In this document: piece by piece, positions 21,332 through 28,477 of the stretch
Layout of the letters: the number at the start of each line of letters is the position of its first letter
How positions within the stretch are numbered: the stretch's first letter is position 1
Origin: Escherichia phage JL1
Length of the DNA stretch: 43,457 bases
Reading direction: 5' to 3' (one strand)
Sequence record: JX865427
Notes under the pieces: generated by a model
Databases searched by the model: none
What the model was told of the DNA's origin: nothing
What the model saw: only the letters and a program-made list of their open reading frames with translations
Program-made: the position numbers and the translations under genes

Positions 21332-21907
21332 ATGTACGGCGAATATGAAATAACCGGTAAACAATTCCACCTGGCGGCAATGATAGCAAGCATCGAGTTT
21401 GAACAGTGGCGCTTAAAGTCTGACGCGTGCAAACAAAGCCGCCTGGTCGGTGTGCTTGGTGAGATGTTTGCAGGCATGTACCTCGAAGGGCAGGCGGGCG
21501 GGCGTAGCTGTATCCCGCAAGGTTTGCTAATGCGTACCGGCCTGTTTAGCGCTAACACAATCGACCGCGGCGATATTATCATGGTCGGCAAGCGCAAGGT
21601 AAAATCCGGCCCCGACTTCCGAGAACATATGATTGATGCCGTCTGGACCTACGAGGTTAAGGCAACCAGCAGCATCCGTCGCGGACTGGTCGAGGCACGT
21701 TGCGCTCGCGAATACCTTACCCGTCGCGTTGCCGGTGTTATCCTGGTGGGCGTATCGTTCGGGCAACATAGCGCGCATGGCGTGATTGAAGATATTGCGG
21801 AGCCATACGTGATAGTGAACGACTGGCCCCTGGTGGAAGTGGATGGTAAGGAATACTACGAAAGCCCGCTGGTTCGGCGCAAAATGGACTGGGAGAACTC
21901 AAACTAA
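21332..21907 (+). CDS. hypothetical protein
   Basis: 191-aa ORF, last gene of the plus-strand arm, followed by the convergent terminator. Confidence 0.5.
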   Translation: MYGEYEITGKQFHLAAMIASIEFEQWRLKSDACKQSRLVGVLGEMFAGMYLEGQAGGRSCIPQGLLMRTGLFSANTIDRGDIIMVGKRKVKSGPDFREHMIDAVWTYEVKATSSIRRGLVEARCAREYLTRRVAGVILVGVSFGQHSAHGVIEDIAEPYVIVNDWPLVEVDGKEYYESPLVRRKMDWENSN

Positions 21908-21931
21908 AAAAAAAAGGGGCCGCACGGCCCC
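21906..21931. terminator. bidirectional terminator between the convergent plus-arm and tail fiber genes
   Basis: A10 + stem ggggccg / cggcccc; reads as hairpin + T10 on the minus strand. Confidence 0.7.
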
Positions 21932-21937
21932 TTCTCC

Positions 21938-23734
21938 TTATTTACCTTCCAGCTTCTCCACTTTATGCAACAGGTGGACGAAGGCGGCACACAGGTCCAT
22001 CAACAGCACGTTACTGTCCAGAGACAGCACATCGTCGGTATACCCGATCTCCTTGCGGTCGACTACAACCTCGTTCCCTTCCTCGTCAACCCCCTTGACG
22101 TCCTCATAAATGGCGTAACCCGGCAGCAAATGCACGTATTCCGGGTCAATCCTTGCCAGGTCCTGCGCGATAAGGCCGTATCGCTGTACGTCAGACTCCT
22201 TATACTTGAACATCGCCGGAAGCCATTGTCGAACTCGGTTGTAACTTTCCTCGCCGTCCGTGTATTTGATTTCTTTTTTAAGGTCGCGGTCTGATAGCGG
22301 CGCTTTCTGGAACTCGTTAACCGACGGGTTGCCGCTGTTACCACTAATAAGCCTGCCGTCCGGTAGGAATCGGAATAGCGCCTCAGTAAAGCCGTCCTTC
22401 CACACATGGACGCGGTAGTCTGATAAGTGGGCATCCCCGGCCCTTACCAGGCCCGCGCGCGTCCAATCCGTGTACCACTTATGCATCGTCTGCCCAACCC
22501 AGCTATCAATCCCGAAAGACGCATTGGATATAATCAAACCGTTACGCTCGACATCATTGAAGACTAGCGATTCACCACCGTTCAGGCGCAACGTGCCAAG
22601 TTTTACTTTATTGTTATCGCCCAACCCGAAATTAGAGCGCGCCTTCGCTGCCGTTGTTGCCGCAGTGCCGCCTTTTTCGATCGGAACGGTGTTTTCAGTG
22701 GCAACAGACCCAAGACCAAGATTAGAGCGCGCCTTCGCTGCCGTTGTTGCCGCAGTGCCGCCTTTTTCGATCGGAACGGTGTTTTCCGTGGCAACAGACC
22801 CAAGACCAAGATTAGAGCGCGCAGCGGCTACCGTCGTCGCGGCGGTTCCCCCTTTCTTGATCGGAACGGTGTTTTCAGTGGCAACAGACCCAAGACCAAG
22901 ATTAGAGCGTGCCGCCGATTTATCAGTTAGCCCCGCCAGGTTGCCGGTTTTGGTTAGCAGATTATCGGCGTTTACGCTTTGTGCCCATTCTTTGGCCTGA
23001 TCGCGAAATCCCTGCGCGGCAGCGCTGGCGGCCTGCGCGTCAGTCTTCGCCGTATTAGCTTTGTCACGAATAACGCCGGTTTCAGTCTTAATCTGGTTCG
23101 TCTGCGTCTTGATGGCCTGCGTATCCGCCTTAATCTTGTCCGTCTGCGTCTTGATGGTATTGGTGGCGTCGTGGACCGCCTGCGTGTCGCTGAGGATTGC
23201 CAGGCTCTGCACCTTGTATCCTTCGGCCTCATTGCGAAATCCTTCGGCCTCATTGCGAAATCCTTGCGCTGCTGCTTCAGACGCGGCGGCTTGTTGTTGC
23301 AGGTTGCGCATCTCAACTGGGTCAACTTCCTTCAGCAATTGCGACAGATAGCCCCATGACATACCCTGCATAACTTGCCCGTTCGGCAGCGTTACCGCGA
23401 TTTCTTCCTCGTCTCCGAAGATTGCGCGCCAGTTGTTTTCGTCCGCGAGCATCAAGCGCAACGCTTTCTGCGCCTGTACTGTTACGCCCATCGTTGCCAG
23501 CGACATGGTATCGCGCTTAACGCCATCCCACGCGAGGCCCGTTGCCGTGGGGCCGTCGAACGGCAGCACAAGCGTAAGCGCGGTGTCGCTTTCTACGGAC
23601 GAGATCGCAACAGTGTAAGGAACTTGCCCCACTACCAGCGATAAGAAGTCGCCTGCTTTAAACGCGGTAAACGTCGTGCCTACCCCGACAACCGCCTTGC
23701 TGTTATTCTTTACGGATAGTGTACCCGCTGCCAT
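21938..23734 (-). CDS. side tail fiber with C-terminal intramolecular chaperone (peptidase S74-like) domain
   Basis: 598 aa; three 30-aa repeats ...GGTAATTAAKARSNLGLGSVATENTVPIEK; C-terminal SDRDLKKEI... region typical of self-cleaving fiber chaperone domains. Confidence 0.8.
   Translation of the reverse strand: MAAGTLSVKNNSKAVVGVGTTFTAFKAGDFLSLVVGQVPYTVAISSVESDTALTLVLPFDGPTATGLAWDGVKRDTMSLATMGVTVQAQKALRLMLADENNWRAIFGDEEEIAVTLPNGQVMQGMSWGYLSQLLKEVDPVEMRNLQQQAAASEAAAQGFRNEAEGFRNEAEGYKVQSLAILSDTQAVHDATNTIKTQTDKIKADTQAIKTQTNQIKTETGVIRDKANTAKTDAQAASAAAQGFRDQAKEWAQSVNADNLLTKTGNLAGLTDKSAARSNLGLGSVATENTVPIKKGGTAATTVAAARSNLGLGSVATENTVPIEKGGTAATTAAKARSNLGLGSVATENTVPIEKGGTAATTAAKARSNFGLGDNNKVKLGTLRLNGGESLVFNDVERNGLIISNASFGIDSWVGQTMHKWYTDWTRAGLVRAGDAHLSDYRVHVWKDGFTEALFRFLPDGRLISGNSGNPSVNEFQKAPLSDRDLKKEIKYTDGEESYNRVRQWLPAMFKYKESDVQRYGLIAQDLARIDPEYVHLLPGYAIYEDVKGVDEEGNEVVVDRKEIGYTDDVLSLDSNVLLMDLCAAFVHLLHKVEKLEGK
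22621..22910. repeat. three tandem 90-bp repeats inside the tail fiber gene
   Basis: Units 22631-22720 and 22721-22810 differ at ~1 nt; third unit diverged centrally. Confidence 0.8.
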
Positions 23735-23755
23735 AGCTGAATCCTCTTAAATTGG

Positions 23756-23814: not shown

Positions 23815-24036
23815 ATGAAAACATTAATTGTGATTTGTGCGGTTCTTCTGTCCGGCTGTGCGGTAGAACGTAACAACGGCGATTGCATTACGGTCGCTTA
23901 CGGTAGCTGCATGTTGCGCTACGTTGACGGGCAAAAAGCCCCTGCCGGGGATGTTGACATGCGCTTCGCTGGCCTGTCCGCGGATAGTGACGGCAACTTC
24001 TCTGGTACGGTATCAGTTAAATCTCGGGAGTGGTAA
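23815..24036 (+). CDS. small lipoprotein
   Basis: Signal peptide MKTLIVICAVLLSGC with lipobox LSGC; AGGGGA RBS. Confidence 0.65.
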   Translation: MKTLIVICAVLLSGCAVERNNGDCITVAYGSCMLRYVDGQKAPAGDVDMRFAGLSADSDGNFSGTVSVKSREW

Positions 24037-24038
24037 TT

Positions 24039-25004
24039 ATGGGCGCTGGAATACTTATAGACTACAACGACGGAAGGCCGGTGATGGAGATAACCGCCGG
24101 ACTTCGCGCTCCGTCATACTGCACTACGTTTGATCAGCGCTGCCAGTCCGATAAGACGCTGACCATTAATACTCCGCTAACCCCAGGGTCGGATCTTGTC
24201 GTTGCGCTCACGCGTCCGGTAGAAGTGATTGAGGTCTTCGACCAAACGCTGGTGCTCCCGGACCCATTCTACGTTACGTCTGTACAACGTAACGGGGATA
24301 ACGGCATTATTCTACGAGGTGCGGACGCGTATAACGCATACAGTGGTCTTCCGCAATGGGCTGGGATAATTATGGAAGTGCTGCCGGTTGGGTCGCGCAA
24401 TGCGGGCTTACTGGTGGCGAACTCTACTGACTTCACCGCGATATCGAACGTATCCCGGCTAATGACCTGCCGATACGCGCAGCGCGTGCGTGTAAACGGC
24501 AGTATGCCGCTGCCGGTGGGTGGCATCCCGTTCGCGCGCTGGGATGACGGCAACGTGTCGGTAGGATTCGACGGCGGTAGTATTATCGTCCGCAACGCGT
24601 CCTATGGTGGTATTGACGATGTGGCGGCTTCGGTGGATATGGACCTGGTGATCTTCAACAATACGCCGCCAGCACCGGGGACCGGCATTACCATGACTAA
24701 CAACCAGGGCCAGGTCACGTTCTCCACTGTGAATAAGCCGTTTGTCCTCAATTCCGTAATTAATATCAGCACTGGTGGTCAGAATATTGGCAACAGCCTC
24801 GTACAGCTCTCATATACCGGCGCGCTCATTAAGAACAACAGCGGATATAACCACGTGCGAATGAACGGGATACGCATGGCGGGCAACGTGGTTAGCGCGG
24901 CACGAAATCGCGTGATCGGTAACTACTCACGGCAGCAATTCCAGATGCCTAATCGTAATGTAACCGTACCCACACCGTTACTAGTCATCCCTAACATGTA
25001 TTAG
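24039..25004 (+). CDS. hypothetical beta-rich protein
   Basis: 322 aa, G/N/T/V/S-rich without signal peptide; GGGAG RBS; co-oriented with the lipoprotein, opposite to flanking tail genes. Confidence 0.5.
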   Translation: MGAGILIDYNDGRPVMEITAGLRAPSYCTTFDQRCQSDKTLTINTPLTPGSDLVVALTRPVEVIEVFDQTLVLPDPFYVTSVQRNGDNGIILRGADAYNAYSGLPQWAGIIMEVLPVGSRNAGLLVANSTDFTAISNVSRLMTCRYAQRVRVNGSMPLPVGGIPFARWDDGNVSVGFDGGSIIVRNASYGGIDDVAASVDMDLVIFNNTPPAPGTGITMTNNQGQVTFSTVNKPFVLNSVINISTGGQNIGNSLVQLSYTGALIKNNSGYNHVRMNGIRMAGNVVSAARNRVIGNYSRQQFQMPNRNVTVPTPLLVIPNMY

Positions 25005-25030: not shown

Positions 25031-28000
25031 TTACCACGTCCCCACTTTCACCCTACCACCGCCAGGTAATGGCACGTTGACGCCAGTTGCGTCGATCGTA
25101 ACGGACCCGCCGGAGAATCCGAAATTACCCGTAGTCGCGAACAAGTTGCCTCGGACCGTTACGTTGTTGAACTCCGCCCCGCCATCCTTCGCGATACGCC
25201 AGCCGCTGCGACCAGGATTCCAGTTATTGGATTGCAGCGTGTCCGTGATCTGTGCGAAGTTGATGGACGCATTCTTGATGCGTGCGGTGTCAATGTACAC
25301 CTGTCCGCCGTCAACAATAAACGCGGACGAAAGCGACCCATTCGACGGGTGCATGATGTAGAACTGGTCCGCCTTGAACGCGATGCGTGATTTAACCGCG
25401 CCACCTTCCGCAACGACGGAAAGCTGCATACCGGCGTCGTAGTAAGCCCCGTTATACGTCACGCCCGCCTTAAGGCTATATGTGGCGCTGCCACCAGCAT
25501 GGTTAAACGTAGACGTCATCTTCTGCTCGATAGCGGCGGACTGCTGCCCGAACTGTGCCGCCACCTGGGTCTTGTACTCCGCCAGCGCGCCCGCTACGTC
25601 GGCAGTCGCCGTTTGTACCTGCTGGATGGCGGCTTCCTGTTCCCCGAACTTAGCGGCAACAGTTTGCTGATACTTGGCGAATGCTTGTTCGTGCGTGCTT
25701 TGCGCGGTCTGCAACGTGTGGATTGACGCCTCCGCATCATCAAGTCGTGTGCCGATCAACGTTTCCAGTTGCGCGACTGCCTTGTGGGCGTCTGCCGCCA
25801 CGTTATACGCCACCTTGATTTCCGCATAAATCCCTTTGTACTTGGCGCGGGCGTTGAATAACTGCTGGGCATCTGTGAGCATTGACTCGTAAATGCCTTG
25901 CGGGATCGTGTTAATAGCTTCCTGGAAGTGTTTACCATCCTCAGAAGTCAAGAACTCGTCATCAAGCCCCTTCATGTACTCGTCAACTTTGTCACTCACC
26001 TGGCCTTCGAACGGGGCGGACCAGTCCGACAGGTTGCCGATTTTATCCGCTACACGGGCGCGCAACTGCTGGTATATGCCGAACTCCAGCGACGTTTGCG
26101 CGTACTCCGCGCCAGGATAGGGGACGTTTGTTAAGAATTTCCATTCCGTTTCACCCGTCTTGCGCACTTCAAGCTCGGTGTATGATATATCAGTCGCAGC
26201 GTTGTTGTGGTTCCACTTCCATAGAATCTGGTGCAGACCCGAAATCGCGTTGGTGATGATTGGGGCGTTAAGCCCACCGAGGCGACCTTCCACCGGCGTG
26301 ATCGCGGAAGACACCCACGGGGACGAGATTTCGCCCATACCAATTGCGCGGACGCGTGCCTGATAGTTACCGGAGAACACGTTAGGGATGTGCGCCCCAT
26401 TCGACGCCGTGCGCGGGATATTCACCCAGTCGTTACCCCACTGGATCTCCATATTCTGCAGGCTAGTACGCCTCCACTGGATTTCATACACCACGGCATC
26501 TTTCACCGGCGGGAAAACAATATCCACGTTGGTGATTAGCTGGCCTTGCGATGAGATCTGCGACGGGGTGATGGTAACGGATTCCGGCCCCTTCATTACA
26601 CCGTCTGGCACTTGCGTAAAGATGCCTGGGTCTAGTCGTGCGCCATTATCAACGGCATCATACTTGCTATCGTTGTATTCAATCCCGCGCACCGAGAAAG
26701 TGCTGGTAGAGTCGTCATATTCCAGATCGGTGATGCGGAATTTCTGCAACTGGATATCATCGCCGTCAACGCAAAACGGTTGGTCTGGAATCGGGTCGGC
26801 ATCCAGTGCGGTTTTTAGCGTGACCTTGTTGCCGTTGACGCTGGCGATCTCGCGAGTCTCCACATTTCCGCTATCGGTGCGCACCAGGAACTTATCACCA
26901 GGGCGGAATGTGATTTCGCTGTCCGTGTTCAGCACGGTACGCGTTCCTGGGTCCGACAACAGGCGACCGCCGCGAGTCTCGAATCCGCCAGAAATGTTTG
27001 TATCCGCGATCGCGACTACGCTACCAGGAATAAAGAATAACCCTTCCATGCCCACCTTAAAACTAACTTGCTGGTCAAGCTGGTTGGATATTAGCGCCCA
27101 ATGCCCGCGGCGTTGCGCTTCGGATTCGCGCGTACAGCCGATCGCCGTAATATCAAGACGGTTAATCTTATGGCGGCGTACCAGTTCAACACGTTGGCCC
27201 GTTGCGATGGCGTCATCGTAGTGGTTTTTCGGATTGCCGTATGCTACCGCGAATGTGGAATAGCGAGTTTTCTGGCTGCCAGATGCGTAGTCGAATCGCC
27301 CATCAATAACAGATGCGTTGGTGATAGTGTGCGACACTGCTGCGACCGGTTGGTCACTGACGATATTCAACATCTGGTTGCCCCACCAGGTCATTCCGGC
27401 GAAGATGGCGGCCAAATCCTTAAGCACGGTCCAGGCATCCGTCTGTGACTGAATGTACATATCATTCTTAAAGCGGATTTCTCGACCACCGTTGCCGTCG
27501 CTGACCAACTGATCGCAGCGCTGCGCGATCTGGTAGAGCGCGTACCGGTTTAACATTTGCGGTTTGATACGCCGACCGAGGCCGAAGCGCTCAGTAATAC
27601 AAATATCGTACCAGTGCCACGCAGGGTTATCCGTCCATGCGCGTTTAAACGTGCCGTCCCAGTCCCCGGAATAAGTATGATTAATCGGGTCGTAGTTGTT
27701 CGGTATTAGAACTTTGCGGCCTTTGCACTTGATGGACACGCGCGGGATGTTCTGGAACGCTTTGGCGTCGAACTCCACAAACAACAGCGCGGTTAGCGGG
27801 TAACGCAGGCGGGCGTCGATAATCTCAGTGATGGACTGCACCTGGATATCATTAACCACTTTCGCCGATGTGGAGTCTGCCGTTATGCGGTGCACCTCCA
27901 CGCGCCAGCCGGTGTTAACGTTCGGCGGTAGCTCGATGCGGTGATCGCGCTCGTATAGCGACATTGTTTTACCAACGGCAGCGAAGGTAAACTCACGCGG

Positions 28001-28477
28001 GTCGGCGTTATCCGTATACACAACGATCTTATAGTCGATGCGCCCACCCACCAGGTCGCCATTATCTTCGTTTGTGTACAGGGCCGGAATGCCGATGCGA
28101 ATGCGCACGGCGTCCAGACTGGTATCGTTAATCTGGCGTACCCACGGCGTGCCGTTTTCCAGTTTTACGCCAACAGATTGCTCACTTTCCACCGCTGAAA
28201 ATCCGTGGATCACATCCTGGTGCTGTGTGCCGGGGCGGAACTCCACACGCGCGCCTGGGAAGTTTTCAGACAGGTCTGCATTCTGGATCGGTGTTCCGTC
28301 CAGATATACGCGCCGCCGTAATTCGTTAGGGTCTGGAATACCTTCGAACTCACCTTCTCCCAGCGCAAGCAAGATGCGGATTTTAGCCAGCGAATGCAGG
28401 CTATCGGGCGTCTCCTGTGGGGTGTGCTGTTTGCCGCCGCCGCCTTTATGCCCTGTGACGTCGTAGATAATCGTCAT
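25031..28477 (-). CDS. tail tip / host specificity protein (lambda J-like)
   Basis: 1148 aa; N-terminus with GGGGK...PDSLHSLAKIRILLALGEGEFEG, characteristic of J-family central tail fibers. Confidence 0.88.
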   Translation of the reverse strand: MTIIYDVTGHKGGGGKQHTPQETPDSLHSLAKIRILLALGEGEFEGIPDPNELRRRVYLDGTPIQNADLSENFPGARVEFRPGTQHQDVIHGFSAVESEQSVGVKLENGTPWVRQINDTSLDAVRIRIGIPALYTNEDNGDLVGGRIDYKIVVYTDNADPREFTFAAVGKTMSLYERDHRIELPPNVNTGWRVEVHRITADSTSAKVVNDIQVQSITEIIDARLRYPLTALLFVEFDAKAFQNIPRVSIKCKGRKVLIPNNYDPINHTYSGDWDGTFKRAWTDNPAWHWYDICITERFGLGRRIKPQMLNRYALYQIAQRCDQLVSDGNGGREIRFKNDMYIQSQTDAWTVLKDLAAIFAGMTWWGNQMLNIVSDQPVAAVSHTITNASVIDGRFDYASGSQKTRYSTFAVAYGNPKNHYDDAIATGQRVELVRRHKINRLDITAIGCTRESEAQRRGHWALISNQLDQQVSFKVGMEGLFFIPGSVVAIADTNISGGFETRGGRLLSDPGTRTVLNTDSEITFRPGDKFLVRTDSGNVETREIASVNGNKVTLKTALDADPIPDQPFCVDGDDIQLQKFRITDLEYDDSTSTFSVRGIEYNDSKYDAVDNGARLDPGIFTQVPDGVMKGPESVTITPSQISSQGQLITNVDIVFPPVKDAVVYEIQWRRTSLQNMEIQWGNDWVNIPRTASNGAHIPNVFSGNYQARVRAIGMGEISSPWVSSAITPVEGRLGGLNAPIITNAISGLHQILWKWNHNNAATDISYTELEVRKTGETEWKFLTNVPYPGAEYAQTSLEFGIYQQLRARVADKIGNLSDWSAPFEGQVSDKVDEYMKGLDDEFLTSEDGKHFQEAINTIPQGIYESMLTDAQQLFNARAKYKGIYAEIKVAYNVAADAHKAVAQLETLIGTRLDDAEASIHTLQTAQSTHEQAFAKYQQTVAAKFGEQEAAIQQVQTATADVAGALAEYKTQVAAQFGQQSAAIEQKMTSTFNHAGGSATYSLKAGVTYNGAYYDAGMQLSVVAEGGAVKSRIAFKADQFYIMHPSNGSLSSAFIVDGGQVYIDTARIKNASINFAQITDTLQSNNWNPGRSGWRIAKDGGAEFNNVTVRGNLFATTGNFGFSGGSVTIDATGVNVPLPGGGRVKVGTW

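Follow-up and report, generated by a model that had tools for sequence, protein, structure and literature searches.

Gene identity, setting and domain architecture

The window analysed, a 43,457-nucleotide stretch of Escherichia phage JL1 (genus Dhillonvirus; record JX865427), carries at 21938-23734, on its minus strand, one uninterrupted open reading frame for a 598-aa protein that is 100% identical to the NCBI entry 'putative tail tip protein [Escherichia phage JL1]' (Table 1). JL1 is a phage that has been considered for the control of E. coli O157. The initial annotation had called the product a tail fibre, and this was supported by a profile search, in which PHROG 1980 ('tail fiber protein') matched residues 1-596 with E = 1e-131, by the annotation of orthologues as lateral tail fibres, including the BASEL orthologue ('lateral tail fiber protein'), and by the location of the gene downstream of gpJ. 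Comparison of gene order revealed that gpJ is followed by genes for a DUF6453 protein and a lipoprotein and then by the fibre gene, and that this position is common to JL1, SSL-2009a, bov22_1, L007 and L008. The upstream gpJ-type central fibre has 1148 aa (PHROG 31; Pfam Phage_Tail_Tip); the fibre gene lies beyond gpJ and a small candidate receptor-binding/exclusion locus, and is convergent with the next gene block. Judged from the letters of the sequence, the hairpin at the end of the gene is a probable bidirectional terminator that separates it from the convergent gene at 21332..21907. The BASEL paper likewise describes the locus as a lateral tail fibre, and proposes that it binds O-antigen (PMC8594841).

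Table 1 Features of the fibre locus, in positions of the window.
Feature	Position	Strand	Details and basis
Lateral (side) tail fibre gene	21938..23734	-	598 aa; stop codon 21938-21940
G+C-rich hairpin, T or A runs on each side	21908..21939	.	Consensus match to terminators on either strand; sequence read directly
N-terminal virion-attachment region, residues 1-138	23321..23734	-	Conserved in all Dhillonvirus alleles
Alpha-helical heptad shaft, residues 139-253	22976..23320	-	AF2, periodicity, phmmer
Perfect 21-bp tandem repeat	23218..23265	-	Tandem Repeats Finder: period 21, 2.3 copies, 100% identity
30-aa repeat unit 1 (LGLGSVATENTVPIKKGGTAATTVAAARSN)	22811..22900	-	Nearest match: unit 1 in alleles with two copies (6/90 nt differ from that of L007)
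30-aa repeat unit 2	22721..22810	-	One synonymous base (window 22787) apart from unit 3
30-aa repeat unit 3, recent duplicate partner of unit 2	22631..22720	-	Sequence comparison
Distal beta-rich domain, residues 369-480	22295..22630	-	AF2, Foldseek
Intramolecular chaperone / Peptidase_S74 domain, residues 481-598	21941..22294	-	Pfam PF13884, invariant residues, fold
S481 codon	22292-22294	-	
K486 codon	22277-22279	-	

Dhillonvirus relatives were 91-93% identical across the first 25 kb of the window in megablast, and no phage record with more than 95% identity was listed in the 'phages' collection for either the fibre gene or these 25 kb. The first ~47% of the protein remained 82-88% identical even in homologues with unrelated distal halves; the BASEL paper describes the lateral fibre gene as conserved at its far 5' end only (PMC8594841). 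Residues 1-73 weakly matched PDB chain 23gd_B (E = 6e-4), deposited as 'distal tail protein gp20'. The JL1 gene is an ordinary, mosaic lateral tail fibre gene of an already known phage.

The AF2 monomer model of the fibre was poor overall (mean pLDDT 61.6), and pLDDT dropped under 50 in two stretches, residues 257-359 and 368-407, that together span most of the repeat region; a monomer prediction cannot fold an interdigitated trimer. The model was unusable for residues 257-407 (pLDDT mostly <50), and its helical shaft, distal strands and chaperone part are treated below.

Chaperone and distal domains

The C-terminal SDRDLKKEI motif had been read in the initial annotation as the hallmark of an intramolecular chaperone domain, and this reading held: the domain starts with that motif at residue 481, Pfam PF13884 matched residues 481-534 over profile positions 1-57 of 58 (E = 5.6e-9; 36.6 bits against a gathering score of 22), and both the putative catalytic residues and the fold pointed to the same family. 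S481 and K486 were invariant in 60 of 60 aligned homologues spanning several chaperone subtypes, with the same Ser...Lys(+5) spacing as Ser1264/Lys1269 of T5 pb1, in which a Ser1264Ala substitution shows Ser1264 to be required for cleavage and Lys1269 has been proposed as its activator (PMC4690869). At the position before the scissile serine JL1 has Leu480 and T5 pb1 has Thr; either Thr or Val stands there in the few homologues read that are more distant.

The chaperone part of the monomer model (pLDDT 65-89) matched several solved structures in Foldseek, namely the MyRF ICA domain 7dc3 (E = 4e-5; TM 0.53-0.56 normalised by target), T5 pb1 with its chaperone (4uw8_G; E = 1e-4) and 3gud_A (rmsd 4.8 A over 127 columns). 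As modelled, the JL1 domain would thus have the mixed alpha/beta fold of solved intramolecular chaperone domains, with the C-terminal helix of a trimeric coiled coil. Using phmmer, the C-terminus of the L-shaped tail fibre 8hqz_d was also matched (E = 4e-5). The alignment with 4uw8_G extended over 269 columns, about twice the length of those with isolated chaperone domains (127-133), so that in the model the similarity probably reaches upstream of the chaperone.

The region immediately upstream, residues 369-480, is presumably the receptor-binding domain. Beta strands were predicted over residues 411-476 (pLDDT 65-81), and this domain is the most variable and most mosaic part of the gene.

Coiled-coil shaft and tandem repeats

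The shaft was modelled as one continuous helix across residues 139-253 (pLDDT 85-92). Its hydrophobicity showed a Fourier peak of 0.80 at 3.5 residues, no other period tested exceeding 0.41; hydrophobic residues occupy heptad positions 2 and 6 in 82% and 53% of cases, respectively, and shaft length among homologues changed in steps of seven residues. Taken with the model, these features point to a coiled coil, probably trimeric. In a phmmer comparison, JL1 residues 142-274 aligned with residues 154-280 of T7 gp17 (E = 1e-3).

Within this shaft, the initial annotation had noted a perfect 21-bp duplication at 23220-23261. The codons of the GFRNEAE-GFRNEAE sequence, two adjacent heptads at residues 158-171, occupy 23222-23263, so the two descriptions refer to the same repeat with its register shifted by 2 nt, and the exact 27-nt run at offset 21 is far beyond chance. 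The perfect repeat is real, but it is not added length. A recent insertion of one heptad was rejected by the GFR-to-GFR motif distance, which is 12 heptads in JL1 as in most relatives, with the downstream GFRDQA motif at residue 242 in JL1 and most homologues. The nearest alleles have GFRNEAE-GFRHEAE (2 nt different) or EFRHEAE at this place; the differences amount to 2-3 nt, and the heptad total is unchanged. Since relatives share the 12 heptads and the closest alleles read GFRNEAE-GFRHEAE, heptad 2 of JL1 was, on these sequence comparisons, most likely homogenised, with the length of the shaft kept.

The larger repeat had been assigned to the shaft as well; more precisely, the array follows the helical coiled-coil part and precedes the distal domain. 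The three tandem 30-aa repeats themselves were recovered by Tandem Repeats Finder as a 90-bp period at 22631-22913 (3.1 copies, 91% matches), and the three units are in frame at an exact spacing of 30 aa. An exact run of 66 nt at offset 90 is again far beyond chance. The claim that one pair of copies differs by about one base in 90 was also correct, although in gene order this pair consists of the final two units, 2 and 3, and not of the first two, because the copies had been counted along the plus strand. The single synonymous difference between them falls at unit position 24 (window 22787 versus 22697). Unit 1 differs from unit 2 at 14 bases and from unit 3 at 13, all 13 within unit positions 43-78; the first 42 nt of units 2 and 3 are those of unit 1, save the single base peculiar to unit 2. 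In its 3' part, unit 3 is similar to the second unit of herni and of the two-copy alleles.

Comparison of copy number among 120 homologues revealed no unit in 76, one in 41, two in 2 and three in JL1 only, the three-unit allele being represented by one deposited genome (one member, one contig). In the two-copy alleles (closest: L007 and L008), the copies differ at 16 of 90 nt, compared with 1 of 90 between units 2 and 3 of JL1. Over nt 1-834, the JL1 gene is 96.5% identical to the two-copy allele L007. Because the copies in the two-copy alleles are diverged, these sequence comparisons support a recent gain of the third unit in JL1. The similarity partner of JL1 changed across the array, from L007-like upstream through SSL-2009a/SM_S22-like to herni-like downstream. 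The suggested recent expansion thus stands for the 90-bp array and falls for the 21-bp pair, and the view of the region as recombination-prone is borne out for the 90-bp array by this switching of partners.

An exhaustive phmmer search matched the 30-residue unit to 1934 protein clusters. Copies most often recur every 30 aa and number as many as 16, three being the commonest number among the best cluster representatives. The unit aligned with SU10 gp12 (7z47_D) and gp92 (9zd7) at E = 1e-11, and by its sequence the unit type is common in phage fibres. None of the Pfam and NCBIfam models scored above threshold for the repeat region, the N-terminal region or the distal domain; matches to Tn916-Xis, Rad50 and SMC fell below the cut-offs and reflect compositional or coiled-coil bias. 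No solved structure covering the unit was found, and its fold was not obtained from the SU10 structure 7z47, in which gp12 is built for the first 90 residues only. A literature search on the sequence motifs of the unit turned up no published description of the repeat: NLGLG was absent from every paper listed, and the matches to 'GGTGA' are probably nucleotide strings. A protein search by word index, its query limited to the repeat region, returned only 10 candidates and was uninformative. A unit that is widespread yet lacks a Pfam or NCBIfam match and, as far as found, a solved structure marks a small gap in curated resources.

Interpretation, alternatives and related fibres

We interpret the protein as a modular lateral tail fibre with an S74-type chaperone, whose repeats were made by ordinary recombination or slippage, and assign this reading a probability of about 0.85. 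The fibre, presumably a homotrimer, would be fixed to the tail tip by residues 1-138. Residues 139-253 would form the heptad coiled-coil shaft, related to that of T7 gp17, followed at residues ~275-368 by the three tandem 30-residue fibre repeats (GGTxATT...ARxNLGLGSVATENTVPI). The variable distal domain at residues 369-480 would most likely have a surface glycan (O-antigen or LPS) as its reversible primary receptor. If it works as in K1F endosialidase and T5 pb1, the Peptidase_S74-type intramolecular chaperone at residues 481-598 would bring about trimer formation and the folding of the distal domain, and would then cleave itself at Ser481, activated by Lys486, yielding a predicted mature fibre of ~50.5 kDa and a released fragment of ~13.7 kDa. 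The ancestor of the JL1 array was probably a two-unit allele, the second unit of which was homogenised in its 5' part to the first and then duplicated very recently to give units 2 and 3, one nucleotide apart. One unequal crossover in an ancestor with two units was rejected as the origin of the array, since it predicts the pattern A-(B5'A3')-B; the pattern in JL1 is A-(A5'B3')-(A5'B3'), so at least two events are needed.

A different identity for the protein, that of a central tail tip or terminal receptor-binding protein, is suggested by the GenBank/UniRef names of the JL1, SSL-2009a and mckay proteins and by the weak resemblance of the N-terminal 73 residues to the chain deposited as a distal tail protein. 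We regard it as very improbable, because the central fibre is encoded separately by the upstream gpJ-type gene, a candidate receptor-binding locus sits between the two genes, the BASEL orthologue carries the lateral fibre annotation, and the combination of coiled coil, repeats and S74 chaperone is a side-fibre architecture of the T5 pb1 or T7 gp17 type. Hardly more credible is the view that the S74-like domain does not cleave itself and remains attached after maturation, capping the fibre in a structural or receptor-binding role. The leucine in place of the T5 pb1 threonine at the -1 position is in its favour; against this, Ser481 and Lys486 are kept throughout the 60 homologues of several chaperone subtypes, the Pfam score exceeds the gathering threshold, and both fold and sequence match chaperone domains known to be cleaved.

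The third 90-bp unit, the perfect 21-bp pair or both could also be artefacts of assembly or sequencing, with two units in the real phage as in its nearest relatives. Three units occur in one sequence and one contig among 5.8 billion proteins, L007 and L008, the nearest alleles, carry two, and near-identity of the kind seen between units 2 and 3 is the situation in which assemblers miscount. Nevertheless, when tandem copies are nearly identical, an assembler will generally collapse them and not add to their number; units 2 and 3 are a base apart and unit 1 is clearly distinct, which anchors the units; the extra length equals precisely one unit, in frame and with the natural period of 30 aa; and copy number also varies between 0, 1 and 2 among independent assemblies. 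An artefact is therefore improbable. Somewhat less so, but still speculative, is the idea that unit copy number and the heptad-quantised shaft may act as a selectable length ruler, with the third unit of JL1 being adaptive, and that the array is also the preferred crossover point at which receptor-binding tips are exchanged between phage families (Dhillonvirus and Drexlerviridae). If so, the third unit would lengthen the side fibre and tune its reach to the glycan layer of the host surface, and would not be neutral slippage.

Under the preferred reading of a modular, mosaic side fibre, the annotation is corrected from 'tail tip protein' to lateral tail fibre with a self-cleaving-type chaperone, which is of modest practical value. 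If the protein is cleaved, mature virions would lack residues 481-598, a point of importance in proteomics, antibody work and fibre engineering; constructs for fibre expression must keep the chaperone. The 90-bp array is genuinely polymorphic in copy number (0 to 3 units) and also marks a recombination junction, and is relevant to comparisons of isolates.

Among the closest known systems are the other Dhillonvirus lateral fibres (SSL-2009a gp28, UAE_MI-01, bov22_1 and BASEL GeorgBuechner), which share the gene, its position and the N-terminal region with JL1. The nearest of these fibre genes have 83-87% nucleotide identity to that of JL1, and many alleles carry the same S74 chaperone, whereas the other fibres have 0, 1 or 2 repeat units in contrast to the three of JL1, and shaft heptads 2-4 and the distal domain are exchanged among alleles. 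The shaft of T7 gp17 (PDB 7boz and others) resembles that of JL1, with FRNEAETFRNQAEGFKNES aligned to GFRNEAEGFRNEAEGYKVQS and tandem FRNxAE heptads where the helical rod begins in both proteins; this similarity is weak (E = 1e-3) and falls within a compositionally biased coiled coil, and the N-terminal adaptor-binding domain and C-terminal tip of gp17 are unrelated to those of JL1. SU10 gp12 and gp92 (9zd7) contain 30-residue 'GGTGATT...ARxNLGLG' repeats like those of JL1.

For the distal half, T5 pb1 (PDB 4UW7/4UW8), the T5-like LtfA (8hqz_d) and the JL1 protein are siphophage side fibres in which a distal domain is followed by a C-terminal chaperone with the Ser...Lys(+5) arrangement, and T5 pb1 and the JL1 fibre have each been proposed as binders of an O-antigen-type primary receptor. 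T5 pb1 is considerably longer (1396 versus 598 aa) and has ~12% identity to JL1 in the structural alignment; the distal domain of JL1 is much smaller, and, unlike T5 pb1, JL1 has the T7-like coiled-coil shaft and the 30-aa repeats. In T5, the upstream folding-sensor residues Asp1239, Arg1250 and Thr1263 make cleavage depend on correct folding of the trimer. The chaperone of endosialidase K1F, the founding member of Peptidase_S74 (PF13884), belongs to the family whose profile matches JL1, and its Ser/Lys catalytic pair is kept; the mechanism is described in PMC4690869. Upstream of the chaperone the two proteins differ, with a small fibre tip in JL1 as opposed to a sialidase beta-propeller with a triple beta-helix stalk in K1F.

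The lateral fibre gene and its neighbours

The JL1 fibre gene is a single open reading frame whose product is 100% identical to the deposited 'putative tail tip protein [Escherichia phage JL1]'. The initial annotation of a tail fibre gene and its sequence features held with small corrections only, and its interpretation is supported. The protein is an ordinary lateral tail fibre of a familiar type whose sequence had already been deposited; the sole new detail is the third unit of an otherwise common repeat, a copy that is very recent and unique to JL1.

The window is the genome of JL1, an E. coli O157:H7 phage, published by Pan et al. 2013, as cited in PMC8967787; many Dhillonvirus phages are 91–93% identical to its first 25 kb. 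'Acinetobacter phage NJ01' (OQ221563.1, host given as A. baumannii) matched 94% of these 25 kb at 93.5% identity; given this match to an E. coli Dhillonvirus, its host label looks doubtful.

Features of the JL1 fibre gene and its neighbourhood
Feature	Window positions	Strand	Residues	Remarks
Fibre gene	21938–23734	-	1–598	598 codons
N-terminal region			1–138	Common to all Dhillonvirus alleles, including those with unrelated distal halves
Predicted heptad coiled-coil shaft			139–253	Single long helix in model, pLDDT 85–92
21-bp tandem repeat	23218–23265			2.3 copies, 100% identity (Tandem Repeats Finder)
90-bp tandem array	22631–22913			3.1 copies (Tandem Repeats Finder)
Three 30-residue units			~275–368
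u1	22811–22900	-
u2	22721–22810	-
u3	22631–22720	-
Distal domain, beta-rich			369–480	Predicted structure
S74 intramolecular chaperone			481–598
gpJ-type central fibre	25031–28477	-		1148 aa; upstream of fibre gene in its own orientation
DUF6453 protein	24030–25004	+		324 aa; phrog_1265 'membrane protein'; between gpJ and fibre gene
Phage_lipoprotein	23815–24036	+		73 aa; PF24052, lipobox LSGC; between gpJ and fibre gene
Hairpin	21908–21939			G+C-rich, A and T runs at flanks; after fibre stop codon, facing convergent gene

The order of gpJ, DUF6453 protein, lipoprotein and fibre was also present in the closest relatives; for the lipoprotein gene, ORF calling offers a longer TTG start at 23752. 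The DUF6453–lipoprotein pair occupies the position described in the BASEL paper as the 'bona fide RBP locus', where SSL-2009a carries another allele (outer membrane protein, membrane-associated protein, Cor). The presence of both gpJ and this separate candidate receptor-binding locus makes it unlikely that the fibre protein is a central 'tail tip'. The hairpin, a probable terminator, is common to the fibre gene and the convergent gene (21332–21907, plus strand, 191 aa), for which Pfam gave no match and phrog_10558 (unknown function) was the sole match.

A third unit in the 90-bp array

Comparison of the three units, numbered in gene order, revealed a single synonymous difference between u2 and u3 (window 22787 vs 22697), whereas u1 differs from u2 at 14 bases and from u3 at 13. 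All 13 of the latter lie within unit positions 43–78, so that positions 1–42 and the final 12 bases are common. The near-identical pair of the initial annotation is thus real, but its 'first two' copies are first only on the plus strand; in gene order they come last. The predicted recent expansion was borne out by comparison of copy number across the 120 best homologues: the unit is absent from 76, single in 41, present twice in two and present three times in JL1 alone. Two independent Logan assemblies supplied the two-unit alleles (568 aa), which in the 5' half are closer to JL1 than any other relative; one of them, L007, is 96.5% identical to JL1 over nt 1–834 overall and 97–99% identical in most 90-nt windows. 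Their own units differ at 16 of 90 bases, indicating an old two-unit state and a recent origin for the u2/u3 pair in JL1. An assembly artefact as the source of the third unit is unlikely, because u2 and u3 are distinguished by a single base, exactly one in-frame unit was added, and the number of units also varies in independent assemblies.

Both u2 and u3 are chimeras, with the sequence of u1 over bases 1–42 and a 3' part similar to unit 2 of the two-unit alleles and to the unit found in phage herni. One unequal crossover on its own cannot yield such units and was rejected as the origin of the array; judging from the sequences, a homogenisation and a duplication would be needed at minimum. The best-matching relative also switches at the array, from L007/L008-like upstream, through 94–97% identity to SSL-2009a and SM_S22 just downstream, to 84–91% identity to herni, a Drexlerviridae phage, farther downstream. 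This switch supports the earlier view of the region as recombination-prone.

The GGTxATT...ARxNLGLG unit (JL1 window 22631–22900) is extremely common across fibre-like proteins. Queried exhaustively with the repeat region, phmmer matched 1934 clusters (represented at 50% identity) at E <= 0.001, of which 435 reached E <= 1e-10. Among the best 149, the GGTxA-to-GGTxA distance was most often 30 residues and the commonest count was 3, with a maximum of 16; tandem arrays of the unit are thus routine in such proteins. Pfam and NCBIfam scans matched no model to the unit, and searches found neither a paper describing it nor a resolved structure covering it.

Shaft variation and probable exchange of the distal module

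Residues 139–253, with a sharp hydrophobic periodicity of 3.5 residues, are predicted to form a heptad coiled-coil shaft. The perfect 21-bp duplication reported within it was recovered at 100% identity and codes GFRNEAE-GFRNEAE (residues 158–171). A second GFR motif (GFRDQA) lies at residue 242 in JL1 and most homologues, so that 12 heptads separate the two motifs in each of these, and this constant distance led us to reject the pair as an added heptad. The closest alleles have GFRHEAE or EFRHEAE as their second heptad, 2–3 bases off the first (CAT GAA vs AAT GAG), and other alleles have GFKNDAN or GFKTETA in this slot; the simplest reading is that conversion gave the second heptad of JL1 the sequence of its first. 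Among the 120 homologues, shaft length (JL1 residues 158–242) differs mostly in 7-residue steps, with the second motif at 242, 235, 228, 221 or 200, twelve heptads being much the most frequent length. The phage mckay fibre (L005 501–1775; P0026) has just 424 aa and lacks the 30-aa unit as well as the entire coiled coil from the first GFRNEAE to the second GFR/GYR motif, a loss of the kind that recombination between those flanking motifs would cause.

The conserved N-terminal region agrees with the BASEL description of the far 5' end as the only conserved part of the lateral fibre gene, owing to fibre attachment to the virion (PMC8594841). Residues 1–73 (window 23516–23734) align end to end with residues 1–73 of PDB 23gd_B, 'Distal tail protein gp20' (E = 6e-4), which hints at a small N-terminal attachment domain in common. 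We found no curated family match for the distal domain. The distal half (window 22295–22990, gene nt ~745–1440; EWAQSVNADNLLTK... through the chaperone) is 84–98% identical in most 90-nt windows to Drexlerviridae fibres (herni, locus L006, and SH6; also homologues P0030, P0033, P0038 and P0042), yet the N-terminus of the herni and SH6 fibres is unrelated to that of JL1. This combination of sequence matches indicates that the distal module was exchanged between phage families.

The chaperone domain and comparison with known fibres

The assignment of a chaperone domain with SDRDLKKEI, which begins at residue 481, is supported by four independent lines: Pfam Peptidase_S74 (residues 481–534; 36.6 bits, gathering threshold 22); S481 and K486, among just 19 invariant columns in a 60-homologue alignment including several chaperone subtypes; the best PDB matches of the predicted structure, MyRF ICA (7dc3), T5 pb1 with chaperone (4uw8) and the chaperone structure 3gud; and sequence alignment of the C-terminal 115 residues to the C-terminus of the L-shaped tail fibre chain 8hqz_d (E = 4e-5). 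Three such domains would nucleate trimer folding of the distal domain, after which we infer self-cleavage before Ser481, with computed masses of 50.5 kDa for the mature fibre and 13.7 kDa for the released fragment. That the domain stays uncleaved is unlikely in view of the invariant Ser and Lys.

Among known systems, the JL1 shaft aligns weakly with that of T7 gp17, which reads FRNEAETFRNQAEGFKNES. SU10 gp12 and the PDB 'short tail fiber gp92' have tandem arrays of the JL1-type unit, the repeat-bearing part of the SU10 fibre lying outside the resolved region. The S481/K486 spacing is that of Ser1264/Lys1269 in T5 pb1, where Ser1264Ala blocks auto-proteolysis and Lys1269 is proposed as the serine activator (PMC4690869); the residue preceding the serine, however, is Leu in JL1 rather than Thr.
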